Of a stretch of 64,000 bases of DNA, positions 6,525-39,434 are shown one piece after another (position 1 is the first letter of the stretch; every line of letters begins with the position of its first letter). Location of the stretch: positions 32,001-96,000 of IMG/VR virus record IMGVR_UViG_3300035520_000529; one strand, given 5' to 3'. The stretch comes from a virus. Taxonomy: Duplodnaviria > Caudoviricetes. The notes under the pieces were generated by a model. The model saw nothing but the letters and a program-made list of their open reading frames with translations. It ran no database searches and had not been told where the DNA came from. Position numbers and translations under genes: made by a program.

Positions 6525-7040
6525 ATGAAAATTTTAGGAAATGAGTTATACTTTTCAAAAGTTAAACCTAAAGCAATTATTCCAAACAAAACGGATGAGA
6601 ACGCAGGGTATGATATTTATGCGTGTTTTGATGAAGAGTACTTAGAAATCAAGCCACACACTACAGAATTAATTCCTAGTGGCATAGCTAGTGCTTTTAG
6701 CGATGATTATTATATTCAAATTCAAGAGAGAGGTTCTACTGGAGCGTTAGGAATTAAGTATTCCGCAGGAGTAATAGATTCCTCATATCGTGGAGAGTGG
6801 TTTATTGCAATTACGAATACAAATAGCAAGAGCGTAATTATTACAAGTTTAGACAAGTTTGAAGTTGCGGAAAGGTTTCCAAACTTAGATGATTTTATAT
6901 TATATCCTAAAAATAAGGCAATTGCACAAGCAATAGTACATAGAGTTCCAAAGATGGATGTTAAAGAAATATCATATGAAGAACTAAGAGAGTTTAAGTC
7001 TATTCGTGGTGATGGAAAACTAGGCTCAAGCGGAAAGTAG
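6525..7040 (+). CDS. dut: Trimeric dUTPase
   Basis: AGYD, ERGS, GVIDSSYRGE, IAQ and RGDGKLGSSG motifs. Confidence 0.92.
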   Translation: MKILGNELYFSKVKPKAIIPNKTDENAGYDIYACFDEEYLEIKPHTTELIPSGIASAFSDDYYIQIQERGSTGALGIKYSAGVIDSSYRGEWFIAITNTNSKSVIITSLDKFEVAERFPNLDDFILYPKNKAIAQAIVHRVPKMDVKEISYEELREFKSIRGDGKLGSSGK

Positions 7041-7110
7041 ATATGATATTATATAAAATAAACTTATGTAAGTGTTTTAAAATCAAAGATAAAAAGAAAG
7101 GAAAATAATC

Positions 7111-7989
7111 ATGGCATTAGTAGAATACACAGCAAGTGGAAAAATAGACAAGGTAGCAAAGGCAATTGAGCGTATAAAAAATTTTGAGCCTATGGCAAAT
7201 GGGTTTGATGATAAACCTTATTACGTATGTTATAGTGGCGGTAAGGATAGCGACTGTATTAGGCTACTATGTGACTTAGCAAAAGTCCCATACGAATTAG
7301 TGTGCAATTGGACTGGTATAGATGCTCCAGAAACTTGGGAGTATATTCATACAATACCAAACTTAAGAATTGAAATGCCTAAAACGTCCATGTTTGAGTT
7401 GATAGTCAAGAAAGGTATGCCACCTACTAGGCTAATTAGGTACTGCTGTGCAGAACTTAAAGAACATGGCGGGGGGGGGCGTTTTTGTATGACTGGCGTA
7501 AGATGGGCAGAGTCAGTGAGACGTTCTAAGAACAGAGGTATGTTAGAAAGCATTGAGAAAAAACTTTCGGATAGAATTATCTTAAATAATGACAACACAC
7601 ACGATAGAAAAGTAATGGATGTATGTATGTCTCAACATAAACGTGTGTTAAATCCTATTATAGACTGGACTGATGAAGACGTTTGGGAATTTTTGCATTC
7701 GCAAGGTTGTGAGGGAAATCCATTATACAAGCGTGGCTTTAAACGTATTGGCTGTATTGGATGTCCACAACAGTATTATAAAGAACGTGAACGTGTGTTT
7801 GAGATGTATCCCAAGTATAAGAAGATGTATCTAAAGGCATTTGAGAAGATGTTAGAAGAACGTAAACGCATAGGTAAACCTTGTACATGGCAATCTGCTG
7901 AAGAGGTTTTTGACTGGTGGATGTATAGCGATGTTCGTAAACGTGCTAAGAAAAGAGAAGAGATGAAAAAACTTAAAAACAATGAGTAA
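7111..7989 (+). CDS. Phosphoadenosine phosphosulfate reductase family protein
   Basis: YSGGKDS PP-loop, RYCC..LK, GVRWAES..R, NPIIDW, RIGCIGCP. Confidence 0.88.
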   Translation: MALVEYTASGKIDKVAKAIERIKNFEPMANGFDDKPYYVCYSGGKDSDCIRLLCDLAKVPYELVCNWTGIDAPETWEYIHTIPNLRIEMPKTSMFELIVKKGMPPTRLIRYCCAELKEHGGGGRFCMTGVRWAESVRRSKNRGMLESIEKKLSDRIILNNDNTHDRKVMDVCMSQHKRVLNPIIDWTDEDVWEFLHSQGCEGNPLYKRGFKRIGCIGCPQQYYKERERVFEMYPKYKKMYLKAFEKMLEERKRIGKPCTWQSAEEVFDWWMYSDVRKRAKKREEMKKLKNNE

Positions 7990-8006
7990 GGTAGTTTAAC
8001 AATGAT

Positions 8007-8043
8007 TGCCCCACCTCTAATAAGGGTGTAGGTGGGGCAGTTT
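8007..8043 (+). terminator. Putative terminator hairpin
   Basis: tgccccacct...aggtggggca followed by gttt. Confidence 0.5.
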
Positions 8044-14549: not shown

Positions 14550-15467
14550 ATGGGATTGAAAGATAAACTATTAGAAAGCGGAAGTCTAACCGATTATATA
14601 GTGCAAACAAGTGTTGATAATGATGATATAGATATTATACAAATGATAAAGCTAACTAGTCTTGAAATTATCTCTAATCAACCTTTTAAGGAATATGTAA
14701 ACACATCTAGATACCAAAGCTTAAAGGAAAGTGTTAAACTTAATGGAATTACCAACCCTTTGATAGTTAGGCTCACTGACGATGGAAAGTATCAAATACT
14801 ATCGGGCAGACATAGGTATTTAGTAGCTAAAGAACTTAATCTTTTAGAAGTACCTTGTATAGTTAAGAAAAATCTTTCTGATGACGATGCAGAGATAATC
14901 TTACTAGACAGTAACCTATGTCAAAGAGAGGAACTATTACCATCAGAAAAGGCATTTTCATACAAGCAGAAGAACGATATTCTAAAAAGGAAAGGTGTGC
15001 GAACTGACCTATATAATGATAGTAATAAAGGCATAAAGTCGGTTGAAATTATTGCTAGTACTATGGGTAGTAGTAAGAGTGAAGTTATTCGTTACATAAG
15101 ACTTACTAACTTAATCCCTAAATTTTTAGATAGACTAGACAGTAAAACCATGCCAATTAGTGTGGGTTATGCTTTGAGTTTTTTGAGTGAAGATTCGCAA
15201 AAAATAGTCAATGATACTATCGAAAATAACGGTATAATAGTATCGTTAAAGATGGCGAATGCGTTGAAAGAACTATCTAACAATAGTATAAAAGTATCTA
15301 AAGAGGATATTGAGAGAGTGTTATTAAATAGCAGTCCAGTTTCAACCAAAACATCTCTAAAAAAACTTAGAACTGACTATCTATCAACATACTTTTCGGA
15401 TGATACCTCTGATGATGAAATGATTGAAACTATAAAGAAAGCTTTACAGTTGTACTTAAACAAATAG
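14550..15467 (+). CDS. parB: ParB partition protein
   Basis: GITNPLIVR, ILSGRHR (ParB N domain), LDSNLCQRE, GVRTDL and an HTH. Confidence 0.9.
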   Translation: MGLKDKLLESGSLTDYIVQTSVDNDDIDIIQMIKLTSLEIISNQPFKEYVNTSRYQSLKESVKLNGITNPLIVRLTDDGKYQILSGRHRYLVAKELNLLEVPCIVKKNLSDDDAEIILLDSNLCQREELLPSEKAFSYKQKNDILKRKGVRTDLYNDSNKGIKSVEIIASTMGSSKSEVIRYIRLTNLIPKFLDRLDSKTMPISVGYALSFLSEDSQKIVNDTIENNGIIVSLKMANALKELSNNSIKVSKEDIERVLLNSSPVSTKTSLKKLRTDYLSTYFSDDTSDDEMIETIKKALQLYLNK

Positions 15468-15475
15468 CGTGGAGC

Positions 15476-16633
15476 GTGAAAAATAAAATTATGCTATATA
15501 CTTTAATGCACCAAAATATTGAAGTTTTCGACCTAACTTTAGATGAAGATTCGGGTACGATAGTAGAGGTTGGAAAAGTTCACAATCCCGAACATATTCC
15601 TATAGGTGTGTGCTTTGATGGGCAGAACATACCTAAAAGAGAAGTTATACACTGGTGGAATGGTAGGTCTATACCTGTTAGCCGTTCGGGGTTGAGAAAC
15701 TTCATGTTGAAGTTAGACCTTACTGACGTCAACGTGTGGGTAAAAAAGAGCCTAGGTTTGAGTCTATCCGATCAGTATTGGATTAAGCCTAAAGATAGTT
15801 CAATACACTGGGAAGATGTGAACTTTTTCGACAACAACTTTTCGGAAGATATCGGCAAACTGTTAATGGGTTACAAGAGTGATTACGCAGTCTACGATTT
15901 TAAATCTCCTGATAGCACGTCTAATGGTTGGCTAAAAAAACGTTGGACTATCATAGATGGAAAGAGATATTTAATCAAAGGTAGCTCTACACTCTTTCAA
16001 GAGCCTTACAATGAGGTTATAGCTTCACACATTGCAGAAACTTTAGGCATACGCCATCAACCTTACAGACTAATCTACAACGAAAATAAGCCTTACTGCC
16101 AGTGTGAAAACTTTGTAACTCGTGATACCGAACTTGTGGATGCTAGTGCTATTGTGCATAGTGTAGAAAGACTTCCTAATGAGAGTAAGTTTGAACACTT
16201 TAAACGTAGTTGTGAACGTTGGAACATCCCAAACTTTAGTGAGCGTATGGACGAAATGTTAGTGCTAGATTACATTATAGCCAACCAAGATAGACACTTC
16301 GGAAACTTTGGGTTTATCCGAGACGTTAACACTTTGGAGTTCCTAGACTTTGCACCTATATTCGATTGCGGAACTTCATTACGTTATGACACACCCACTA
16401 AATATATTGATATCAGCCTTGACGTTGAGTCACAACCATTCTTAGACACACATTCCCAACAGATAACACTAATCAACGATTGGAGTAAGTTCGACCTATC
16501 CAAACTGGGCAACATCTCCAACTGGATACACAACTTCCTAACCTCGGGAGTAAACTCAATCTTCATAGATGAGGAACGCAGCGAGAAGTTGGCGACACTA
16601 GTCGAACGTAGAATAGACACACTAAAACAGTAG
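15476..16633 (+). CDS. HipA-like/CtkA-like Ser/Thr kinase
   Basis: SLSDQYWIK, GWLKKRW, YNEVIAS, NQDRHFGNFG and APIFDCG kinase motifs. Confidence 0.82.
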   Translation: MKNKIMLYTLMHQNIEVFDLTLDEDSGTIVEVGKVHNPEHIPIGVCFDGQNIPKREVIHWWNGRSIPVSRSGLRNFMLKLDLTDVNVWVKKSLGLSLSDQYWIKPKDSSIHWEDVNFFDNNFSEDIGKLLMGYKSDYAVYDFKSPDSTSNGWLKKRWTIIDGKRYLIKGSSTLFQEPYNEVIASHIAETLGIRHQPYRLIYNENKPYCQCENFVTRDTELVDASAIVHSVERLPNESKFEHFKRSCERWNIPNFSERMDEMLVLDYIIANQDRHFGNFGFIRDVNTLEFLDFAPIFDCGTSLRYDTPTKYIDISLDVESQPFLDTHSQQITLINDWSKFDLSKLGNISNWIHNFLTSGVNSIFIDEERSEKLATLVERRIDTLKQ

Positions 16634-18287: not shown

Positions 18288-19076
18288 TTAGTATGTGTAG
18301 TTATACCTTATTGTGGCACTAGTTAGAGGTGTGTTGCCAGTGCTACTAATAGAAATATTACTCCATTGAGCTGATGTACCAGCATAATAAACGTTTTTGA
18401 GCGAGGTAGATAGATAAAAAGCATAGCTATCAATAACAGAAATAGTGTTAGGTATGTATATACTAGTTAAGCTTGTACACTCTGAAAAAACATTTTTTGA
18501 AATAGAAGTAACACCGCTAGGAATCTTTATAGTAACTAAGCTTGTGCAACCATTAAAAGCACCACTACCAATACTTGTAACACCACTGGGAATAACTACA
18601 CTAGTTAAGCTTTCACAACTAGAAAAAGTGTTTTGTTTAATGTATGTGACACCATTTGGGATAATTGCATTAGTTAAGCTTTTGCAACCACTAAAAGCAT
18701 ACTCATCAATAGAAGTAACTGTGTTAGGTATGTCTATATTAGTTAATTTTGTGCAAGATGCAAAGGCTCTATTACCAATAGAAGTAACACCATTAGGAAT
18801 AGTTATACTAGTTAAACATGCATAATTTAAAAAAGCATAACTTCCAATAGAAGTAACACCATCTGGAATATTAGCTTCTATACTAGCACCCGTTAACGTA
18901 CCGCTACTATCAATAGTGTACTCAAAGCCCCCACTAGCATCTATATTTTGCAACTTACTCACAAGGCTATCGAAACTTTCGCTTTTGGAAGCTTCCACAT
19001 CAAAGGAATTAAGCTTGTCTACAAGATCGCCTTTAATGGCAACCAACTTTTCTAAATATTCAGCAATAGTTTGCAT
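18288..19076 (-). CDS. BspA-type leucine-rich-repeat (LRR_5) protein, probable tail/receptor-binding
   Basis: Repeats of IPxGVTSIGxxAFxxCxxL after an N-terminal helical segment. Confidence 0.85.
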   Translation of the reverse strand: MQTIAEYLEKLVAIKGDLVDKLNSFDVEASKSESFDSLVSKLQNIDASGGFEYTIDSSGTLTGASIEANIPDGVTSIGSYAFLNYACLTSITIPNGVTSIGNRAFASCTKLTNIDIPNTVTSIDEYAFSGCKSLTNAIIPNGVTYIKQNTFSSCESLTSVVIPSGVTSIGSGAFNGCTSLVTIKIPSGVTSISKNVFSECTSLTSIYIPNTISVIDSYAFYLSTSLKNVYYAGTSAQWSNISISSTGNTPLTSATIRYNYTY

Positions 19077-22932: not shown

Positions 22933-25900
22933 TTAATTAGCAGTTTCCCAGTCAAATAAGTCTGTAAACGTAGTTGTTTTATCGTTACAGATTATTTTAT
23001 TCGCACCAATACTTCCTATATTATATCTGCTTGATGTCTTATACGTTCCATCATCAAGATATATATACCATTGCACAGGTGTATTATTTGGTTCACTTGG
23101 AACATGAGGTAAACGTACATCATAACTAGTAACTAATTTAGCACCCAAATCTATACCATAATCCTCAGATATTTTTTCTTCTTTATTTACTAAATACGCG
23201 TAAGTTGGTCTAAAATAGGTTTCATTTATAGGGTAGCTATATATTAATGAATACGTTTGATTTAATGCGTTTTTAATATCATCATAATTGCCTTTATAAT
23301 GAATAGTGTCTAGTGCATCCATTAATTCAAACTTTACTTTATATAAATTTTCAACGTCTATTTCAAAATTTTCTTTAAATCTTGAAGAAGCACTTATAGT
23401 TAAATCTAACTTGTAATCTTGAATAATATGCTTATCACTGTTAACACTCTCGTCTATTCTATAGAATAAACTTTCACCAATTTTAAAGTTACGCATTATA
23501 AATGGTATGGCTAGTCCTTTAATTGCAGTTTCATTCGTACCATAAGGTTCTGTTACTATAATTTGTCTAGTGGGTCTATAATAATTAGAATTATGAGTTG
23601 CTGTTAAGGACTCTGCCAATATGGCACCATCATATACATTTATATTATCTGGAAACGTATAAGTTTGCGTAACTTCATCATATGTATAGCGATAGACATT
23701 ATCAGCATTTTCTAATAATTTTGATTGAGAAGTAAAATTGATTAAACTACTGAACCATTGTGAATTATGACGGATACTCGCAATTTCACTGCTCGTCAAA
23801 TGTGGGAACATTTCAGTTATATAGTTTGAACCAGAAGTAGTGGTTCTTGGTAAATATCCTCCACTTCTACTCGTTCCAATACTTAATGTTAATACGTCAT
23901 CTTCATCAATTGAGGTGTTTTTACAACCACACGCAGTTATGATAATATCATAATCACCACCAGTCTCATATGTGTGTGATTTACTTATCATGGTTGAATC
24001 TTCATAATCATTTACTAGTTGTGTACCATTAAAACTTCTGCCATGAATTAGTGTGGCATTGTTATTACTACCATAAATTTGTGAATAAAAATTTCCCGAA
24101 CTTGTACTGTATGAACTTAACAAATCGTATCTAATTACTTTCATGGTATCATTGAATGAGTAGATGTCAAAAGTTCCGTCTCCCCAATACACATAACCTA
24201 TTGTGCTTACGCTTTCTTCTCTTATGTACCTATCGCCCTCAAAAGATGAATATTCGCCATATGGAGTATTTTTTTGGTACTTATCATCATCAACACTTTT
24301 ACTAAAAATATTATCTAATATTACAGTAGTGTTGTTATTATATGATATTTCAGAGTTAACGTTTCCATTGGAATCAGTATATGTACATTCAGAGAGATAT
24401 TCTAGAAAATCATCTTGAGATTCAAAGAAATCAGCCGATACTAATCTGCCATCACTACAAGCTGAAAGTGAATACGTTCCACCATTTGGGTCTTCAACAC
24501 TCTTGTATACAGTTGTAGTTTCAATTACGGGGTTTAAGCAAGGCACTCCACGATATGTAAAGTAATGATAATGACCAGAACCCTCAATTACATCTTTTTC
24601 TGTTATAAGTTCAGTGTTAAACATATCAGTAGAACTTGTCCAATCAAAAGCCTCTAATGGTACACTTACAATATAGCTACCATAGTACTGATTTTCATAA
24701 CCACTATCTTCAACAGTAACACCTAAAGTAAGTGGAGAAATATCTTTTCTAATAATTCCATCTTCTACTAATGAATTTCTCTCATCATAGTATGGTCTAA
24801 TATTAACGATTATTTCTTCGTCCCAATTCTTTCCTGCATTAGAGGTATATGTTAATTGAACAGTTTGACCTTCACCAAACTTATACCTAGCGTTTGAGAC
24901 ATTAGGAAATTCATATTTTGTAGTTGTAATAAGTAAATTTTGTTCTTGTTTATCTTGAACTAATTCCTTATTATTGTTATAACACTGATAATGTAACGTT
25001 GCAGTTGGAAAAACCGCTTCACAATTGACATATTGAATCTCTGCCCACAAATATCTAAATGGATACCAATCGAGTTCAGATTCGTTCATTGTCATACTAA
25101 TTTCTTCTAAATAATATATAGGATATTCTATTTTTAAAATATTTCCACTATCGGGAGAAGTATATGTTATCTTCATGGTGTGTTCACCATATCCACTATT
25201 ACAAGGTGTATTATAATATTGTACTTTGTTAAATAAAGAATATGATTCAAGTGTATCACATTCCCATGAATTTAATTTATCTACGGATAAACTTGTTCCT
25301 ACCATTTCACCATCGACTTCATGAAACCAATATACACTAGTTGTAATTTTTTGAGCGAAGTACGTTTCTAAGAATTTTTCTCCTATGCAGTTGTCGGCAA
25401 CCTTTAAATATTCATTAAATTCTTTAGGTTTGTTTAAATTCCAAATAATTTTACTACCTAAAGCCATTTTCCAAATAACATTACTATCCCTGCTTATGTT
25501 TAGATATTTAAAACTAGGCATATGTGAGCCTATTCTCATACTTCTAATTTCTTCACTAGCATCATACCCACCAAATAATACTTTGGCACAAGATGATGAG
25601 TCTATGTGAAAATATGAAGAATTAGTAGTGCCTATTAAAGAATCGTCATCAATATAATAATTTATTTTTTTTAAATTTGAACATCCTACAAACGCACTTG
25701 ATGATTGTTCTTCAAGTGACACTACTGATGGTTTGGTTTTAGAACCAAAATTAACAATTTCTAATCCACTGTTAGAACATGAACTATTTTCTACTATTGC
25801 CATATATGGAACGTTCAATTTTTTAAGATTAGTAGCACCATAAAAAGTACCCGAACTAATACGTTTAAGATTATCATCTAACTCACAGTTTATTAAGTAT

Positions 25901-26133
25901 GAGTTATTTGCACAAAAACCATATCCAATTTGTTCAAAATCAGTAGTGGTAAATGTAACAGTATATGTGCCACCACTTGCATAACTATGTGAACTAGAAC
26001 CATATACATAGTCACTAGTTGTATCATCACCCCAATCTATAGTACCTGTAATTGAATTGCTTGTGGATATAGGTGATAAACTAAGACTAAATGCATCAGT
26101 TGAACTAAATGTAAATTTATTAATCATGCTCAT
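22933..26133 (-). CDS. Large tail protein with PKD-like domains and short LRR segment
   Basis: IDWGDD...SHSYASGGTYTV (PKD) occurs twice in related form, plus an LRR-like segment. Confidence 0.65.
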   Translation of the reverse strand: MSMINKFTFSSTDAFSLSLSPISTSNSITGTIDWGDDTTSDYVYGSSSHSYASGGTYTVTFTTTDFEQIGYGFCANNSYLINCELDDNLKRISSGTFYGATNLKKLNVPYMAIVENSSCSNSGLEIVNFGSKTKPSVVSLEEQSSSAFVGCSNLKKINYYIDDDSLIGTTNSSYFHIDSSSCAKVLFGGYDASEEIRSMRIGSHMPSFKYLNISRDSNVIWKMALGSKIIWNLNKPKEFNEYLKVADNCIGEKFLETYFAQKITTSVYWFHEVDGEMVGTSLSVDKLNSWECDTLESYSLFNKVQYYNTPCNSGYGEHTMKITYTSPDSGNILKIEYPIYYLEEISMTMNESELDWYPFRYLWAEIQYVNCEAVFPTATLHYQCYNNNKELVQDKQEQNLLITTTKYEFPNVSNARYKFGEGQTVQLTYTSNAGKNWDEEIIVNIRPYYDERNSLVEDGIIRKDISPLTLGVTVEDSGYENQYYGSYIVSVPLEAFDWTSSTDMFNTELITEKDVIEGSGHYHYFTYRGVPCLNPVIETTTVYKSVEDPNGGTYSLSACSDGRLVSADFFESQDDFLEYLSECTYTDSNGNVNSEISYNNNTTVILDNIFSKSVDDDKYQKNTPYGEYSSFEGDRYIREESVSTIGYVYWGDGTFDIYSFNDTMKVIRYDLLSSYSTSSGNFYSQIYGSNNNATLIHGRSFNGTQLVNDYEDSTMISKSHTYETGGDYDIIITACGCKNTSIDEDDVLTLSIGTSRSGGYLPRTTTSGSNYITEMFPHLTSSEIASIRHNSQWFSSLINFTSQSKLLENADNVYRYTYDEVTQTYTFPDNINVYDGAILAESLTATHNSNYYRPTRQIIVTEPYGTNETAIKGLAIPFIMRNFKIGESLFYRIDESVNSDKHIIQDYKLDLTISASSRFKENFEIDVENLYKVKFELMDALDTIHYKGNYDDIKNALNQTYSLIYSYPINETYFRPTYAYLVNKEEKISEDYGIDLGAKLVTSYDVRLPHVPSEPNNTPVQWYIYLDDGTYKTSSRYNIGSIGANKIICNDKTTTFTDLFDWETAN

Positions 26134-30757: not shown

Positions 30758-33700
30758 CTATAAGTTTTCTTTAAGTAAGGTTGTTAATTGGTCTATGAAT
30801 TGTGTAGGATTGTCAGTGGCTACTTTGTCTATATTTATAGTTAAAGTTTGTGCTACTTGTGTGGATGATTTTAACAAACCATTACTTAATGCAGACGAGT
30901 TTTTTAAATCCGTTAATGCTTCGTTAGTAACGTCTACAGAGTTCTTTAAGTTATTAACTGGTTCGGCAACAGTTGTGGTCAAACTAGTATTAAAATCTTC
31001 GGGTAGTCCTAAAATTTTATTAATGCTTTCTTGAGTTAGCTTAGTAAACTCATTAACGCTATTTGTAAGACCAGTAAGTTCATCAGTGTGAGTAGAGTTC
31101 ATTTGTTCTTCTAACGCACTGATTTGCTTATCCAAAGCTTCTTCTTGTTTGTCAATAGCATCTATTTCTTTATCTATAGCATCTTGTTGGTCTTTAAGAA
31201 CGTCTATTTGATCATCTAAGCCATCAATAATATCATTTATGCCGTCTATTTGGTCATCTAAAGCATCAATTTGGTCATCAAGAGCATCAATTTGCTTTTC
31301 AAGTTGAGCAATTTCTTCTTCTTGTAAAAGTTCATCGAGTTCTTGTTGAGCCTCCTTGATTTCATCTTTATCCGTTTCCCATTGCCAACCAAGTTCCTCA
31401 GTAAACACTCTAATAGTTTTTTGATTGAGTGCATTTTGTAATCTGATTTGTGCTTCTTGGATTTTTAAAGCACGTTCTTCCTCTTCATTCTTTTCTTCTA
31501 ATAAATCTATTTGGTCTTGGATAGCATCCTTTTGCTTTTCGATAGCTTCCTTTTGGTCTTCGATTAAGTCTATTTGGTCATTCCAATAGTCTTTCTGGTT
31601 TTCGATAGCATCAATTTCATCATCTAGGGCATCTTTTTGAGCATTCCAATATTCTTTAGTTTCTTCTAAAGCTTCTTTTTGACTTTCCAGCAGTTCCTTT
31701 TGAGCATCTAATAGACCTTTATAAACTTCTTCTTCATATTTACGATAGTCATCAAGATACTCTATCTTATTGGCATAATATTCTTGATTTAGTTCATTGA
31801 GGTACTTATAATAGTTCGCATCGTCTATAACGTTCATGTTGTGTAGATGTTCAAGGTATGCAAATTGTTCTTCAGCTTCTGCTTTGTAATAGTCAGTATC
31901 ACTGCCGTAATTACCCGTAGTAACCATAGCTAAATTATTTTTCAATAATTGTAAAGCTTGAATTTGAGCATAAATTTGTTCTGTAGCTTGTCCTCTACTA
32001 ACTATCGATTGTAAATTAACTAATTGCTCATCAATTTCTGCTTCAGCTAATTGCTTATAACTATTAGCATTTAGAGTTAGTTTACCAGTAGTCTTATCCA
32101 GTTGAATACATTGTGCATAACCACTATCTATTAACGATGTCATGGTACTTAATGATAAATAACCATTATCTTTAACTTCTTTAAAGGCATTACTCATGGT
32201 TGAAGCACTAGATTCAATGTTTTTAGTAGCTGATAAAATATCGCTAAAACTACCATTTGCAACTGAACCTACTCTACTAGACAAATCTTCCCACATAGAC
32301 AATATATACTCATTATCTTCTAATGATTGACTATTTTCGTCCAAAGCTTTAGATAATTCTTGTACTTGTTGACTAGCATAGGATTTATCAGCGGTTGAGA
32401 CTGTTGAGTCACTAAGTTTTTGCTTGTATTCATTAATAGTACTAATTAATTGTGTTTGCTCTTCTTTTAAAGAGTTTATTGCGTTTTGACTATCAACTTT
32501 ATAAGCTTCAATCTTAGCTTGTGCTAATTCCTCATACTTTTCAGTATTGATAGTTACTAAACCACTTTCTTTGTCTAGTTCAAGAATATCATCGAAATCG
32601 CTTTCTATTAGTTTAGTAATGTCCTCACTAGATAGACTTCCGCCTTTTCTAATGGTTTCCATCATCGTAGAGATTTCGCTAAATTCACTAGACAACGATG
32701 TTATCATATCTGAACCTATTTTAGTTGGACTGATTTCATCTTCAAATGATTTGTATTCTTGTTCAAGAGCATAAAGGTCAGTATTTATTTCATTAAGTGC
32801 TTCATCGTAGCCAAGGTTGTCAAACTTAACTTGTAACATTGCTTGAATAGTTGGGTTGCTTTGACTAGCAATATCTTTCAAATCACTTTCTTTAGCACGT
32901 TCCAATTCAGCCTTTTGAGTAAGTAGTGTTGCTTTTTGGTCATTGTACTTCGCTTGAATTAGTTTTTCTAAAGCTTCTCTATCTAAATTGTATACATCAG
33001 CGTTAGAATTATAATTTAAAGCTTCACTGTAACCATTGCTAATTAAAGATAGTATGGTTTCAGAAGTGAGTTTTCCTTGCTCTGACATTTCTGAATACGC
33101 ATCAGTTATTAAGTCTAAATTATCGGCTAGGGTTTCAAGCTCATCAGAACTACCACCCAATGCTTCTATTAATTCAGTAGTGGTTTGACTAATATTTTCA
33201 ATTGCACTAGATACATTGAATGTATGTTCAGACGTATCCTCACTAATATATCCAAATTCTTCTAAATATTCGATTAGATTTTCAAAAGATATTCCACAAT
33301 CATCGGCAACGCTTTGCATATATTCAAATATATTAGCGTAACTTTGAGCCTTGTTTTTGTAGTCACCAGTTTGGAAGTCTAAAACAATTTCCGATGCTGT
33401 AGCAGTGCCTATTAACTTATTAAGGTCAATCTTAGAGAAAATATTTTCAATCTTAGTCTTGATAACATCTTCGTTAAAGTTAGTTAAAAATCCATCAAAC
33501 CACGATTCTACTGTATCAGAAAGACCTTTAGTTTCAATACCTGTAATAGTATCTTTTAAGCTATTTAGTACATCTGACTTAGACATCAGCATATTATAAA
33601 GGCTTTCAATTTCTTCATAAGTAGATGTTGCCTTTTCAGTTTCACCATTGGCTATATAATCATTGTATTCACTAATTAAACTTTCAACACTACTTTTCCA

Positions 33701-35561
33701 TTCGGAAAGAGTTTTACCATCTATATCATCGGTTGAGTAGTCTACAAAACTATCCAAGAATGATGAAATTGTAGTTTCATAATCGTCATATGTGTCCGAG
33801 GAATATTTGGAAATTTTCTTCTGTATAGTAGTTAAAACTTTACTAACGTCTTCACCAGTTTGAGTACCATATGCCTTAACATCATCGTAGGCTTTTTGTA
33901 AGTCCTTTTTATATTGATATATAGAACCATCATTGGTAATACCATATGTATACGTCATGCTTAAATCATTAAGAGATTCTGCTTTAAACCCATTGTTTTT
34001 CAAGATATTACTAACTTCAGTAGAGAAATTATTTCTACGGAGTGAGATTGATGTGGAACTAAAAATTTTAGATGGGTCATACATCTTTTGGTAAGCAGTT
34101 TGAATATCCTTAGAATTTTCTTGCACAAACTTTGAACTTTCTAGAGCAGATATTTCTTGAAGTTTTTCCAATTGCTCATCAAGTTTACCATTAACTAAGT
34201 CTACACCATCTGCTTGTGTTCCGTAAGTATCTATTAAAGTTTGTTGTAATTCTAATAATTGCTTATTTGTATCGACTAAGTTTTCAGTGTCTCCACTATT
34301 AGCATAGTCTTCTTGTGCTTCTTTTAATTCTTTCAAGTTGGAAATATTTTCTTCAAGTTCGTCATTAAAAGTTTTAAGATTACTACTAGCTTCAATAGTT
34401 TCATCGCTGACCTTACCCAATCCCTTAGCCCAACTAACCAAAGTTGATACTATATGTGAAATAGCATATGAAAACAATCCGCCAACCACAGCATTTAATA
34501 TACCCGATACTACACTTAATGCAACTGTTCCTAATTTTGCAACAGCAAGTTTAGTTGCATAGCCTACTAAACCAACTTGTGCTTTATTTAAACTTTGTAG
34601 CTGTTCTGCTAATTTAGGATTTGATAATGCCAAAGTATTTAAAAATTCTTTCTGCGTATCATTTGCAACGTTAAGTTTCAAAGAATTTTCGTCAGCCAGT
34701 TTATTGTATTCACTTAATGCAGTTAACGTACCAGATAGCCCTTTGCCATAATTAGATGTCTGTAGAAATTCCATGTAAGTTTGGTTGGTTGCTTGAGCAT
34801 TTATTTTGGCTCTTGTTGCAAGATAATTTTCTAAGACAGTATTGGCGTTAGAAACCTCTTTTATGTACTTTGACATATCTCCATTGTTTTTAAGCGTATT
34901 ATTATAGTTAGTAATGGCTTGTTTATAATCCTTAGTATTAATAATCGATGCACTATCCATTGAACTTGACAAATTAGAACTAATAAATTTACTTGACGTT
35001 AAAGATTTACTTACAAGCGTGTCAAATTTTTTGAACAATGTACTTAGTGCGTTACCTATATTTTTGATAAAGGATGTGTTTAAAGTTTTGGTTATTATCT
35101 CCACAGAACTAGTAACATTTTTTAGAGAAACGTTATTTATGTTATTAAAGCCATTTTGAATTTGGCTAATCTTGTCGCTATAATTATTCAAAGGTGTTGA
35201 ACTTTTCTTAATGTTCTTAAAAAACTCATCAGTAAATCCTAAAGTACCAAATTTTTTATTCATTAGTCCATAAGCACTACCTATACTAGCAATTAGTACT
35301 GGAATTGCTCCAAATAAATCTACAAGTCGGTTAGCTTTGTTGATGAGTTGGTTTATGCCGTCTAAAAAGTCTTTTATAAACTCTGTATCGAATGTTGTAG
35401 TGGATATTTCTTGTGCAGATGCTTTAATAACATTTACTTTACCCTCAATGCTATCTACATATTTTTGGTTTTCTGTTTCAGCAGAACCCTCAGCATTGTT
35501 TGCAACTTCCAATGCTTTTTCAACTTGTGACCAGTTTGAGAGTAATGCTGATACTTGGTTT
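30758..35561 (-). CDS. Tape measure protein, exon 3
   Basis: Frame extends upstream of the called start to NQVSALLSNWSQVEKALEVANNAEGSA, which continues exon 2's ...AGKNRA. Long helical/coiled-coil protein. Confidence 0.88.
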
Positions 35562-35646
35562 CATTTATATTTAGCGAGTTCGTTAGGCTCACTTGATTTT
35601 AGTTAATAATAGTGAGAGTTGAAGCCTTACAACTCTCGCTTGTGTT

Positions 35647-38184
35647 TTAGTCTAAATATGTAACTTTCTTGCAACCATCGAAAGCATCTTTTACGATTGT
35701 TTTAACTGTTTTAGGTACTTCTATTTCTAGATTTGTGCATCCTTTAAAAGAACCGCTTTGTATTGATTGTACACTATTGGGAATTGTTAGTTTTTGTAAC
35801 GATTTACAATTATGAAATGCATATTTACCGATAAGTTTCACATTTTCTCCGATGGTGACTTTTTCTAGGTTAGTACAGTCTTCAAAAGTACTTATACCAA
35901 TGCGAGTTACTTTATTTGGAATTTCTATTTCCGTTAAACTTTTACAAGCCCTAAATGCTTCGCTGTATATTTCTTTAATGTTTTTTGGTAAATTTACTTT
36001 TTCTAAGCTAATGCAATCTTTAAAAGCATGTGCACTAATACGAGTTACAGAATTAGGAATATCTATTTTTTTTAAATTTTTACATTCCGCAAAACATCTG
36101 CTACTTATACTTTTAATATTTTTTGGTAAAATTATTTCTTCTAAATTACAACAACCACCAAAGGCAACATATCCAATACTTGTTACAGAATTAGGAATAT
36201 TTATTTCTTTTAAATTTTTACAACCATAAAACATTGCTCTGTTTATATTTTTAAGGTTTTGTGGCAGAGTTATTTTTTCTAAATTAGTACAGCCACTGAA
36301 CGTTACTCTGTTTATATTTTTTATGTTTTTTGGTAGAGTTATTTCTTTCAAATTAGTACAATTGCTAAAACTCCAATCACTAATGCAAGTTACAGTACTA
36401 GGAATCTCTATTTCTTTTAAACTTTCACAACCACTAAAGGCTTCACTGTGTATTGCTTTGATACTTTTTGGCAAATTTATTTTTTCTAAGTTACTACATC
36501 CACTGAAAGCTTTTTCTCCAATCGTGGTTACTGTATTAGGAATCTCTATTTTCTTTAAAGTTTCACAATAACAAAATGCTTCATTGCATATTTTTTTAAG
36601 GTTTTGTGGTAGAGTTATTTCTTCTAAATTAGTACAACCATAAAAAACACTTTCTTCAATACTGCTTACAGCATTAGGAATGTTTATTTTCTTTAAACTT
36701 TTACAGTTAGAAAAAGCTTTGGTATATATACTTTTAAGGTTCTGTGGTAAAGTAATTTCTTTTAAGTTACTACATCCACTAAAAACACTTTCTCCAATTG
36801 TGGTTACTGTGTTTGGAATTTCTACTTCCTCTAAAGTTTCACAATTTCTAAAAAGTCCATTGTTAAAGATTTTGATGTTTTTCGGTAAAGTGATTTCTTC
36901 TAAATTAGCACAACCATCAAAAGCATATTTGCCAACACTTTTAACACTATCTAGAAGTACCATCTTTATTATATTAATACAATTTCTAAAAGCATTATCT
37001 CCTATACACTTTATATCCTTTGAAACTATTATTCCCTCTAAATCTACTTTTTGAGGACACTTTATGATAGTACTGTCACATTTATTAATTAACGCTCCTT
37101 GCGAATCATAATACTTTTTATTGTTTTTATCCACAGATATTGTTTTTAAATTATCGCAATCATTGAAAGCATTTGAATCAATATGCATTACACTGCTAGG
37201 TATAGTTATTTTTTCTAGACTAGTACATTCTTTAAAATCGGATGCGTCGATAGAAACTACACCATGTGGAATAGTTAACTTGATTAGACTTGAACACCCA
37301 CTGAAACTAATCTTTTCAGTATTTACTAACGATTTAGGAAATATTATTTCTTTTATAGTGGAACAGTCTACAAAAGCGTTAGGGTGTATATTACATATAT
37401 TGTTTGGTATTGTTAATATACTTTCACACCCTTTATATTTGTAAAGAACATTGCCTAGCACAATTAAATCATTTGGATAATCTCTTATGAATGGTGTATT
37501 TTCAAAGGCATTATATCCAATAAAAATAACAGTATTTGGAATAATTATGTTGCTTAAACTTGTACAATTCTTAAAAGCATCTTCTTCAATAAATTTAACA
37601 CCATTAGGAATTGTTATGCTCTCTAAGTTTATACAATTGCTAAAAGCACCCTTATCGATGGAGACAACGCTACTTGGAATAGTTATGCTTTTTAAAGCTG
37701 TACATCTACCAAAAACACCATCTCCTATAGAGGTAACATTATTAGGAATACTTATATTAGTTAAATTTGTGCACTCGTGAAAAACATATTTACCTATAAA
37801 GGCAACACTATTAGGAATAGTTACACTAGTTAAATTTATGCAACCATCAAAAACATTATCTCCAATGGTGATAACTCCATTTGGAATAGTTACATTAGTT
37901 AAGTTTGTACAACCTTTAAAAGCACACTCTCCAATAGATGTAACACTATTAGGAATAGTTATATTGGTTAAGCATGTGTAATTTTTAAAAGCACTACTTC
38001 CAATAGACTTAACACCATTAGGAATAAATATACTACGAATTTTTTGATTTCTCCATGAGAAGTCAGAACCACAAAATGCATAATCTCCAATAGATGTAAC
38101 CCCATCGGGTATTACAACGTTGACTTCAGTTCCATTGTAATGTTCTAAAATACCATCTACAATTACAAAATCTTCACTTGCCAT
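35647..38184 (-). CDS. Intron-encoded BspA-type leucine-rich-repeat (LRR_5) protein, no signal peptide
   Basis: About 30 repeats of IPNxVxxIxxxAFxxCxxL. SD GAAAGG. Confidence 0.92.
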   Translation of the reverse strand: MASEDFVIVDGILEHYNGTEVNVVIPDGVTSIGDYAFCGSDFSWRNQKIRSIFIPNGVKSIGSSAFKNYTCLTNITIPNSVTSIGECAFKGCTNLTNVTIPNGVITIGDNVFDGCINLTSVTIPNSVAFIGKYVFHECTNLTNISIPNNVTSIGDGVFGRCTALKSITIPSSVVSIDKGAFSNCINLESITIPNGVKFIEEDAFKNCTSLSNIIIPNTVIFIGYNAFENTPFIRDYPNDLIVLGNVLYKYKGCESILTIPNNICNIHPNAFVDCSTIKEIIFPKSLVNTEKISFSGCSSLIKLTIPHGVVSIDASDFKECTSLEKITIPSSVMHIDSNAFNDCDNLKTISVDKNNKKYYDSQGALINKCDSTIIKCPQKVDLEGIIVSKDIKCIGDNAFRNCINIIKMVLLDSVKSVGKYAFDGCANLEEITLPKNIKIFNNGLFRNCETLEEVEIPNTVTTIGESVFSGCSNLKEITLPQNLKSIYTKAFSNCKSLKKINIPNAVSSIEESVFYGCTNLEEITLPQNLKKICNEAFCYCETLKKIEIPNTVTTIGEKAFSGCSNLEKINLPKSIKAIHSEAFSGCESLKEIEIPSTVTCISDWSFSNCTNLKEITLPKNIKNINRVTFSGCTNLEKITLPQNLKNINRAMFYGCKNLKEINIPNSVTSIGYVAFGGCCNLEEIILPKNIKSISSRCFAECKNLKKIDIPNSVTRISAHAFKDCISLEKVNLPKNIKEIYSEAFRACKSLTEIEIPNKVTRIGISTFEDCTNLEKVTIGENVKLIGKYAFHNCKSLQKLTIPNSVQSIQSGSFKGCTNLEIEVPKTVKTIVKDAFDGCKKVTYLD

Positions 38185-38220
38185 AACATCAAGACCTTTC
38201 TACAATAATTTGTTAGGTAT

Positions 38221-38249
38221 ATTATAGCAAATGTTTTGTGAAAAGTCAA
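38221..38249 (-). promoter_or_regulatory. Sigma-A promoter for the intronic LRR gene
   Basis: TTGACT (38249-38244), 17-nt spacer, TG-extended TATAAT (38226-38221). Confidence 0.82.
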
Positions 38250-38431
38250 TATAAATCGTTTGCTTTTATTCGATATTTTAACTAAAATCACTCATGCTTT
38301 CACATGAGATTAGACTATTTCTTCACCCTCACCATTATGTGTTAGGGGCATACCTTTTCCGTTTAAGAGGTTTTCACTCACTCACTTGAGCCGTACTCCT
38401 ATTGACACAATTCTGTCTATTGTGTCCTATG

Positions 38432-38612
38432 GGATAGCCGTTGAAGTTTCTCCGTGCCTTTCGGTTTAGGAGCTTACCTGCATGAACAACCATTGTTATC
38501 GGTTATTTAGGATTTAACCATGTAACCATCCTTACGTTGTTTCTACTTTCGTACCATCGTAGCGTGATTTCTCCGCTACTGTGGTGTAAGGCTTTAGGTA
38601 TTACCTGCAATT
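38432..38612. repeat. Direct repeat copy A (intron core), 180/181 identical to 41612-41792
   Basis: Direct sequence comparison. Single mismatch 38575 G vs 41755 A. Confidence 0.95.
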
Positions 38613-38660
38613 AGATATGTATGTTATGCACATTTCTGTACATAAGGGTAAATTAAGTTT

Positions 38661-39434
38661 GCCCTATTCTTACCTGCAATTTTTTCAAGTAATCCAGCTT
38701 GATTTATGTCGGATAAATCATCCCAAACGTTAGCAATTTCTCGCATAATTTCATAGGTTGATTTATATGTGTTACTATCTTTCATGATGTCTATACCCGA
38801 CAAAGCTTTAATATCTTCTCTCATTTTGGAAGTGGTTTCAGCCATACCCTCAGTATCTTCGCCCATTTCCTCAACTTCTACCTTGCTAGAGCGTAACCTC
38901 ATGGATAGCGTTTTTAATGCGTTACCCATACTGTTGGCATCTTGGGTTATTTCAGTACCACCAGTTATCATTGCTATAGATTCGTTTAAACTATTTCCTG
39001 CTACCGCTAAAGCACTAGCACTTTGTGTTAAACCCTCGCCAATATCAGAGGAACTTAACGCAAACTTATTACCTACATCGTTGAACGCATCCACGATACT
39101 AATGCTATCCTCAGCTTCAACGTTAAAAGCTTTCATAGCAGTTACAAGGTCACTAGTAGCAGTATCAATGTCAATGAAGCCTACATTAGAATACATAGTT
39201 GCAATATTACCTAATGTTGTAGCTTCGTCTAGAGTGTAACCTAGTCTACTAAATGACGATACTGCATCAATAACGTCTGTAACAGTACTAGCTAACTCTT
39301 TAGCACTACTAGTAGCAGTAGTTAAAAACTTATCATAAGTATCACTGGTTTCGGAAGTAACACGTTTTAAGGTTACCATCGAAGTATCGACTTCTTCAAC
39401 AGTAGTTAACATTTCTTTGAAATAACTTATTACT
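38661..39434 (-). CDS. Tape measure protein, exon 2 (conserved core domain)
   Basis: RVISYFKEMLTTVEEVD...FSRLGY...GNALKTLSMRL...IAGKNRA is typical TMP core. 774 nt. Confidence 0.9.

Follow-up and report, generated by a model that had tools for sequence, protein, structure and literature searches.

Open reading frames (ORFs) within group I introns are treated as homing endonucleases, maturases or the transposon genes of IStrons, all of which serve the spread of the element itself. The td, nrdB and sunY introns of phage T4, for example, belong to subgroup IA2 and carry ORFs for I-Tev endonucleases. A non-nuclease protein gene within a group I intron is found in fungal mitochondria, where intron mL2449 of rnl holds rps3. 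Phage morons, in turn, are autonomous promoter-gene-terminator cassettes in the late region. Here we describe a group I intron in the tape-measure gene of a virus of the Caudoviricetes (Duplodnaviria), represented by IMG/VR record IMGVR_UViG_3300035520_000529. We analysed positions 32,001 to 96,000 of this record, a stretch of 64,000 nucleotides that we call the window and to whose numbering all unlabeled positions refer. The intron holds an 845-aa leucine-rich-repeat (LRR) gene, and orthologous introns at the same codon of related phages hold unrelated genes. Judged from sequence, it is probably a self-splicing IA2 intron of a large temperate SPbeta-like Firmicute phage, in which the loop of helix P9.1 acts as an exchangeable cargo bay.

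Other described systems bear comparison as well. IStrons are chimeras of a group I intron and an IS605 or IS607 insertion sequence and carry the transposon genes (Tourasse 2014, PMC4227781; Zedaveinyte 2023, bioRxiv 10.1101/2023.11.20.567912). In prophages of the Bacillus cereus group, the tape-measure gene harbors IA1 and IA2 introns at several sites per gene, with a conserved P3-P7 core and diverged P1, P2 and P9 among paralogous introns (Tourasse and Kolsto 2008, PMC2504315). These introns are ORF-less or lack a complete homing endonuclease gene, and no accessory cargo was reported for them (PMC2504315). The window intron shares with them the host gene, the intron classes and the presence of several intron sites, but it holds an accessory cargo. 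Like IStrons, it combines an IA2 ribozyme with a non-endonuclease payload in a loop of the 3' domain closed by an AU-rich stem, and splicing would render the insertion harmless. Unlike in IStrons, however, the payload is not a transposase or TnpB and lies in P9.1, the termini are unrelated, and there is no omega-RNA and no evident mobility function. The T4 introns resemble it in their IA2 core, an ORF looped out from a peripheral helix, separate expression signals and an essential phage host gene, but the window ORF is a pure LRR solenoid without a nuclease, and the loop content varies among orthologues (LRR, protease module, NYN). While rps3 is likewise a non-nuclease gene inside a group I intron, it is a single fixed organelle housekeeping gene with neither promoter cassette nor allelic exchange. 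Finally, the locus resembles morons in being a self-promoted cassette that occupies a fixed site with conserved flanks and differs in content from one related phage to another, but the site lies inside a coding gene, where it would be tolerated via RNA splicing, and the flanks are two ribozyme halves. In the paper library that we searched, we found none in which a self-promoted cargo without a mobility function is exchanged between orthologous copies of a phage group I intron. Tape-measure group I introns, endonuclease ORFs and IStrons were already known.

Results

Intron boundaries and ribozyme

All genes of the tape-measure region lie on the minus strand of the window. The 5' exon ends at C38661 (..AAG AAT AGG GC) and the intron at G35562, behind the tail ..AAAUAUAAAUG, so that exon 3 runs from 35561. 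Joining 39412-38661 to 35561-30758 yields a single open frame of 1,851 aa. Its junction, LLEKIAGKNRA/NQVSALLSNW (slashes mark splice sites), aligns without a gap to the uninterrupted tape-measure genes of four other viral contigs, for example LLETLAGKNRANVLAAILNNF in L015 (other contigs are given by our locus numbers). The initial annotation, made from the window alone, had described a 3.1-kb insert that splits the gene at KNRA/NQV and ends in a G. Both statements hold: the insert measures 3,099 nt, its excision is gap-free against uninterrupted homologues, and the terminal omega-G is present at the 3' splice site. The predicted ligated product reads AGGGC/AAACCAAG. Exon 3 has neither a Shine-Dalgarno sequence of its own nor a credible start. 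It begins with AAAC, the same four bases that open the intron and pair with the guide sequence, and this is likewise the case in L028, L040 and L042; the 3' exon could therefore replace the P1 extension, forming P10.

A complete group I core had been proposed for the 5' end of the insert, and the covariance model recovers it at full length. Rfam RF00028 matches 38670-38291 (minus strand) over model positions 1-253 with 53.2 bits, above the gathering score of 50 (E 1e-10). Within P1, the intron bases AAA (38660-38658) pair with UUU (38652-38650). Subgroup IA2 is defined by P7.1/P7.2 between P7 and P3' and by an extended P9 domain (PMC4227781). The window intron shows both features, namely a two-hairpin insert of ~90 nt between P7 and P3' (Rfam alignment, alifold) and P9, P9.1 and P9.2 in the fold. 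Among the three complete orthologues (window, L028 and L042), both sides have changed with pairing kept in 22 of 109 predicted core pairs, and in 25 of 130 pairs when mini-introns including P9.1 and P9.2 are compared.

The cargo gene is looped out of the P9 region by a helix between 38290-38278 and 35606-35594, which had been predicted to be a perfect 13-bp pairing and is confirmed as an inverted repeat. While the mere occurrence of a 13-nt inverted repeat is near chance in AT-rich DNA, the position of this one is not chance-like, as its two arms directly adjoin the hairpins P9 and P9.2, respectively. When the loop is swapped for a tetraloop, the 3' domain of the resulting mini-intron folds as P9, P9.1 and P9.2. 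The same P9 hairpin is present in six ORF-less phage introns, each with a short variable hairpin exactly at the place of P9.1, and the relatives L019-L024 share the design of P9.2 and tail. Because the ORF-less relatives have their short hairpin at the same place, the helix can be assigned as P9.1 and the 2.67-kb insert as its terminal loop. The length of this clamp varies (window, 13 bp; L028, 10 bp; L042, 16 bp), as does its sequence, but each version is perfectly complementary. The P9.2 stem also shows compensated changes in L028 and L042.

Orthologous introns with other cargos

We queried exon 2 and the start of exon 3 against the protein collection and found four independent public contigs, L040, L028, L042 and L043, that carry an orthologous intron at the identical tape-measure codon. 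The boundaries AGGGC/AAAC ... AAAUAUAAAUG/AAA are the same in L028 and L042/L043, as is the 3' boundary in L040. Window positions 36234-30000 have a counterpart in L040 at 84% nucleotide identity, covering the last 204 LRR residues, the 3' part of the intron and exon 3. In L028, the alignment with the window extends from exon 2 through the core to the 5' arm of P9.1, breaks off over the cargo and resumes at the 3' arm. Its 1.74-kb loop contains an 84-aa ORF, an M78 peptidase that matches PADLOC capP (2.8e-28) and a 185-aa protein with hydrophobic segments (membrane protein). In L042 and L043, the loop of ~1 kb harbors an NYN-domain gene; upstream of it are a 51-nt direct repeat, in two copies spaced by 118 nt, and a terminator-like hairpin (L042 7657-8706), a layout that recalls type III toxin-antitoxin loci. 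In both L028 and L042, a promoter matching the consensus at 12 of 12 positions follows closely after the 5' arm within the loop, equivalent to the window; promoter position was judged in copies whose loop 5' end is on the contig. The phage G002 (L015) is without an intron at this site. The site thus appears as a series from empty to three unrelated cargo sets (LRR; CapP-like M78 module; NYN), and the search among related tape-measure genes that the initial annotation had recommended returned both intronless alleles and the same intron with other cargo.

Other insertions were seen near tape-measure genes of related phages. L043 has an M78 peptidase and a 203-aa gene (6788-8020) between the tape-measure gene and the next tail gene. 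Since its sister L042 has no insertion at that place, this pair represents an ordinary moron-type insertion, of the same module kind as in the L028 intron. Vsr-like ORFs are carried by L009, L011, L020 and L031, in the last of these between tape-measure pieces. Short tape-measure fragments of the P0181 type were rejected as candidates, being decayed remnants in bacterial chromosomes and not intron-bounded exons, and the fragments in L029 and L030 were uninformative.

Further searches with parts of the intron added little. In IMG/VR, scans for exact matches to the P1 region, the P7.1/7.2 segment or the 3' terminus gave no further copy, a genome-contig search with the P9 pattern and the exon 2 protein gave no match, and a metagenome scan with a 20-mer over the P9/P9.1 junction hit two contigs of unrelated, eukaryote-like DNA, which we dismissed as coincidental. 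A megablast comparison of the region with phages and plasmids yielded nothing useful; its sole match was a 59-nt piece of the conserved core in Pseudomonas phage PhiPA3. There, window positions 38427-38485, which span the P7 side of the core and the first part of the P7.1/7.2 insert, correspond to 116700-116757 with 88% identity, annotated as 'putative endonuclease'; this stretch of the jumbo phage may be an unannotated group I intron.

The leucine-rich-repeat gene

Pfam LRR_5 (PF13306) covers the 845-aa ORF in nine stretches with E 4.5e-289 and 941.7 bits, compared to a gathering score of 27.7. About 34 units of 23 residues tile residues 1-845, with 27 strict motif matches at 23-aa spacing, and therefore leave no space for another domain. 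Searches with Pfam, NCBIfam, PHROGs and PADLOC revealed no nuclease, transposase or defence family in the ORF, which also has none of the homing-endonuclease types (LAGLIDADG, GIY-YIG, HNH, His-Cys box, PD-(D/E)xK, Vsr-like). The expectation of LRR_5 without a nuclease was thus borne out. Of the four collections, NCBIfam gave sub-threshold matches to adhesin-type LRR families only, and PHROGs two families of unknown function and two weak matches. No signal peptide was evident in the protein, and its database homologues are generic LRR_5 proteins in uninformative contexts.

The initial annotation had further described the gene as intact and BspA-type, with its own sigma promoter and Shine-Dalgarno sequence. 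This description proved accurate: the promoter agrees with the consensus in 11 of 12 positions and is second best in the region, and the Shine-Dalgarno sequence is modest (GAAAGG, 10 nt upstream of the ATG). A hairpin indeed follows the stop codon, but the accompanying statement that it has no U-tract is only approximately right; it is followed by ACTATTATTA and was scored as terminator-like. The hairpin lies within a 49-nt segment between two ACTAAAA repeats. This segment is missing from L040, where the LRR stop codon falls inside the 3' arm of P9.1, and the hairpin is therefore not essential.

Window and L040 can be compared for both the cargo and the tape-measure gene. Over 158 codons of orthologous blocks, the LRR genes are 73% identical with a synonymous divergence (dS) of 0.58, a nonsynonymous divergence (dN) of 0.15 and a ratio (omega) of 0.26, whereas exon 3 shows 89% amino acid identity over 1,598 codons, with dS 0.57 and omega 0.10. 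The equal dS of the two suggests that gene and intron have been co-inherited since the phages split, and an omega below 1 indicates purifying selection on an LRR gene that codes for a working protein. This gene evolves faster than the tape-measure protein, and the L040 copy has one extra 46-aa double repeat, as is typical of interaction surfaces. Both GC content and GC at third codon positions of the LRR gene are inside the range of the phage's own genes, while tnpB of the neighboring IStron stands out.

A neighboring IStron and further elements

A sibling element lies 3 kb upstream in the same tape-measure gene, with ends at ~41893 and 39435 (minus strand) and a TCAG 3' end, as determined by three-way comparison with L006 and L007. 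This IStron has a group I core, a promoter with 12 of 12 matches, an IS607-type serine recombinase, TnpB and RAGATH-18 RNA. A 34-nt inverted repeat (41455-41422 / 39474-39441) forms the stem of the loop that encloses its payload, which follows P9.2. The RAGATH-18 RNA after tnpB is probably part of the omega-RNA. The TCAG end is as in group A IStrons, yet the TnpA is of the IS607 type. If splicing followed the transposon boundaries, a stop codon would arise; with G39433, 2 nt downstream, as the 3' splice site, the frame is kept. Positions 38644-38432 of the LRR intron match 41824-41612 of the sibling over 213 nt at 94% identity, and ~181 nt of these contain a single difference (repeat search, alignment). 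P1, P2, P7.1/7.2, P9 and the termini differ between the two.

A second IS607-like unit in the window is listed in Table 1; there is no room upstream of it for an intron core. A third, IStron-like element is found outside the window in L004 (genome 99923-102988), where a weak group I match of 28.6 bits followed by a TnpB-only gene splits a 402-aa ORF.

Cargo may not be confined to a single tape-measure intron. In L028, a tape-measure exon (..NKFALSS) resumes after P7 strands GACUG/CAGUC, a P8 hairpin, a J8/7-like UGAAUAUC and three 3' hairpins. By eye, this stretch resembles the 3' half of a complete ~320-nt ORF-less intron at another tape-measure site in L041; a blastn comparison among the loci, made before L041 was included, found no intron similar to it. 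Upstream of this P7 (L028 1-896) are two ToxI-like 39-nt repeats, a terminator and a ToxN/AbiQ gene (Pfam 1e-48, PADLOC 1.4e-37). The contig begins inside the ToxIN cassette, and the 5' half of the second intron is off the contig. It is therefore likely but unproven that ToxIN resides inside a second tape-measure intron of L028. If confirmed, L028 would provide an abortive-infection system carried in a group I intron. The L028 ToxN protein was found in no other contig. In L033 (1450-3340), a tape-measure fragment is followed by a core that looks group I by eye, a promoter, a ribbon-helix-helix repressor-like gene and a Bro-N/ANT anti-repressor gene; Rfam gave no group I match for this core, and the 3' exon is off the contig.

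Genomic context

The source record is a viral contig of 108 kb with an estimated completeness of 64%. By tblastn, exon 2 matches tape-measure genes of Brevibacillus phage Sundance and of Bacillus phages. Residues ..ISYFKEM, which precede ATG 39412, align to the G002 tape-measure protein, and exon 2 therefore starts at the IStron 3' splice site and not at this ATG. We also rejected the idea that the upstream 1,363-aa ORF is a gene by itself, since its C-terminal end and the residues preceding ATG 39412 are contiguous on one G002 tape-measure protein. Because the IStron flanks are contiguous in this manner, the gene has three exons and encodes ~3,200 aa. ParB-like and HipA-like kinase genes adjoin the lysis cassette (14550-16633, plus strand), which fits a temperate or plasmid-like lifestyle.

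Table 1. Features of the intron, the tape-measure gene and related elements in the window
Feature	Position	Strand	Basis or remark
Upstream tape-measure part, ORF of 1,363 aa	45930-41839	-	
Serine recombinase with MerR domain, IS607-type	41365-40754	-	in sibling IStron
TnpB	40761-39613	-	in sibling IStron
RAGATH-18 RNA	39559-39489	-	in sibling IStron, directly 3' of tnpB
Tape-measure exon 2, PhageMin_Tail domain	38661..39434	-	Pfam PF10145, E 1.9e-23
Whole group IA2 intron, 3,099 nt, A38660 to omega-G35562	35562..38660	-	removal restores gap-free frame
Catalytic core P1-P9 including P7.1/P7.2 insert	38291..38670	-	RF00028; covariation
P1 with internal guide sequence	38645..38665	-	Rfam alignment
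Core segment, P3-P6/P8 side, near-identical to sibling IStron	38432..38644	-	repeat search and alignment
P9 hairpin, 7 bp, GAAA loop	38291..38308	-	fold
P9.1 5' arm (UGAUUUUAGUUAA)	38278..38290	-	repeat search, 13 nt, 100% complementary
Sigma-70-type promoter, TTGACT-17-TG-n-TATAAT	38221..38249	-	11/12 matches, second best in region
Cargo ORF, 845 aa, BspA-type LRR_5 only	35647..38184	-	Pfam
Post-stop hairpin, weak terminator-like	35614..35637	-	scanner score
P9.1 3' arm (UUAACUAAAAUCA)	35594..35606	-	repeat search, fold
P9.2 hairpin (35593-35573) and 3' tail AAAUAUAAAUG to omega-G35562	35562..35593	-	fold
Tape-measure exon 3, 1,600 aa, begins (A)NQVSALLSNW	30758..35561	-	open frame; L040 comparison
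262-aa LRR_5 protein between tail-fibre and holin genes; 1,066-aa tail-module protein with weak N-terminal LRR_5	18288-19076 and 22933-26133	-	
Second IS607-like unit: TnpA 61527-60922, TnpB 60929-59763, RAGATH-18 59712-59642	61527-59642	-	beside tyrosine integrase gene 63122-62121

Discussion

Following transcription of the late tail operon, we propose that the transcript runs through the whole insert and that pairing of the 13-bp P9.1 helix holds the 2.67-kb loop together at its base, with P9, P9.1, P9.2 and the omega-G tail placed beside the core. Guanosine-initiated splicing could then join the 5' exon to exon 3 and give rise to an intact tape-measure protein. The cargo might be transcribed separately from the host-type promoter just inside the loop, also while the late genes are silent. 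Between phages, the cargo could be swapped, most simply by homologous recombination via the ribozyme on one side and P9.2/exon 3 on the other. As the intron has no nuclease of its own, it was most likely inherited vertically or moved by recombination. With respect to the features of a cassette, a consensus-type promoter is present, the terminator is weak and missing in L040, and replacement between relatives is seen.

The initial annotation had viewed the ribozyme as a landing pad, neutral through splicing, for a cargo that has its own promoter and is not a nuclease. Three cargo sets at one codon, their promoters and the compensatory changes support this view, while the interpretation as a whole is supported only in part: expression in the plasmid or lysogen state, a cytoplasmic anti-defence or decoy function of the LRR protein and transcription past the hairpin are its conjectural elements. 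That the transcript is spliced to ligated exons is suggested by the open, selected exons and the structural covariation, and a number of observations weigh against it or against the proposed role of the loop. To our knowledge, a U.G wobble at the group I 5' splice site is near-universal. The window intron instead has C38661 opposite A38649, which is flagged as non-standard by the Rfam alignment and was absent from the initial description; in L028 and L042 the C faces a G (CG:2 CA:1). The C is found in all orthologues because it is fixed as the second base of an Ala codon. In the Tetrahymena ribozyme, a Watson-Crick pair at the cleavage-site position lowers cleavage; a C.A wobble can substitute for U.G, and a C-G pair is poor. 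The loop of 2.67 kb is also expected to reduce splicing efficiency, as splicing dropped with growing cargo length in IStron constructs (bioRxiv 10.1101/2023.11.20.567912). Moreover, the assignment of L028 and L042 as orthologues is based on alignment to the window copy, since Rfam does not detect them: the sibling IStron and the L028, L042 and L033 introns all go unreported, even at E<=10. In our view, RF00028 is not very sensitive to AT-rich IA2 introns such as these, and we therefore turned to alignment and covariation. Every intron copy stems from metagenome assemblies of uncultured samples, with none from a cultured phage. As to the role of the cargo, PADLOC returned no defence family for the LRR protein, and the nearest relative of its N-terminal third is the 262-aa tail-module LRR_5 paralogue of the same phage (53% identity).

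This last point leads to a different reading of the LRR gene, namely that it encodes a late tail or adsorption protein, such as a virion adhesin or helper, that resides in the intron much as rps3 does and is expressed with the tail operon. The paralogue is closer than any database match (37-42% identity), LRR_5 domains occur in tail-module proteins of this phage as well as in the syntenic gene of L041 and L042, the adhesin-type families are the only ones that NCBIfam reports, and the gene is oriented with the tail operon and has no signal peptide. These paralogues make a structural or adsorption role plausible; we nevertheless consider it rather unlikely. The gene has its own near-consensus host-type promoter, the protein lacks the N-terminal 60-aa segment of the paralogue, and sister phages have unrelated non-structural cargos or no intron at this site, so that the LRR gene must be dispensable for tail assembly in the lineage. 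Together with the defence-like alternative cargos, the promoter favors an accessory role. Since these alternative cargos look defence-like, our best guess is that the LRR protein is a binder of the accessory class, involved in superinfection exclusion, defence or counter-defence.

The insert might also be a decayed IStron in which the LRR gene has replaced the IS607 genes. A bona fide IStron with a core near-identical over ~181 nt sits 3 kb away in the same gene, and in IStrons, too, the loop that holds the payload is closed off by an AU-rich stem of inverted repeats (PMC4227781). We regard this origin as improbable, however, given that the payload is located in P9.1 here and after P9.2 in the sibling, that the insert has a different 5' end and no TCAG 3' end, and that it contains neither TnpA/TnpB nor, at E<=1, any remnant of RAGATH-18 or omega-RNA. 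In addition, its P7.1/P7.2 and P9 regions resemble those of ordinary phage introns, and the orthologues with other cargos share the same non-IStron ends. Recent gene conversion between neighbors accounts better for the shared core and would not require descent of the LRR intron from the IStron. A last possibility is that the intron does not splice and the tape-measure gene is broken, as in a defective prophage, or that the arrangement is an assembly artefact over the 181-nt repeat, a concern already raised in the initial annotation. Although the non-canonical C at the 5' splice site, the very large loop and a contig of limited completeness with several IS607, TnpB and IStron elements could be taken to point in this direction, we find it very hard to reconcile with the data: the three tape-measure exons are open over 3.2 kaa, exon 3 is under strong purifying selection relative to L040 and cannot credibly start on its own, and ribozyme and clamp have evolved by compensatory change. 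The assembly is reproduced independently by L006, which matches the sibling IStron contiguously with 95% identity over 2,455 nt, and by the Logan contig L040, in which the join of LRR gene, 3' intron end and exon 3 recurs. A spliced IA2 intron with an exchangeable P9.1 loop is thus the reading that we favor.

A broader version of this reading is more tentative. In this lineage of large Firmicute phages, group I introns in tail genes could be a general, recombination-friendly hotspot for prophage-expressed defence, exclusion and counter-defence genes that are swapped between phages, with RNA splicing covering the cost of their insertion into an essential gene, and the LRR protein a new effector that binds to block or sense a competing phage or a host defence. 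Such a hotspot might count the LRR gene, the CapP-like protease module, the NYN RNase-like gene behind its repeated leader and ToxIN in the second intron among its first members, although we would at present rather bet against this generalization than for it.

The same intron, at the same codon, holds unrelated accessory genes in different phages, while ribozyme and clamp are under structural selection. The ribozyme loop would thereby offer a safe harbor within an essential gene, and its two halves could provide the homology through which cargos are exchanged. Such cargo lies between the apparent 'fragments' of a split structural gene, where programs that call genes or find defence systems can easily misread it. 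If the arrangement proves general, it would represent a compact design for in-gene payloads without disruption, account for the persistence of some introns that lack a nuclease, and constitute a new class of hotspot for accessory and defence genes in phages.

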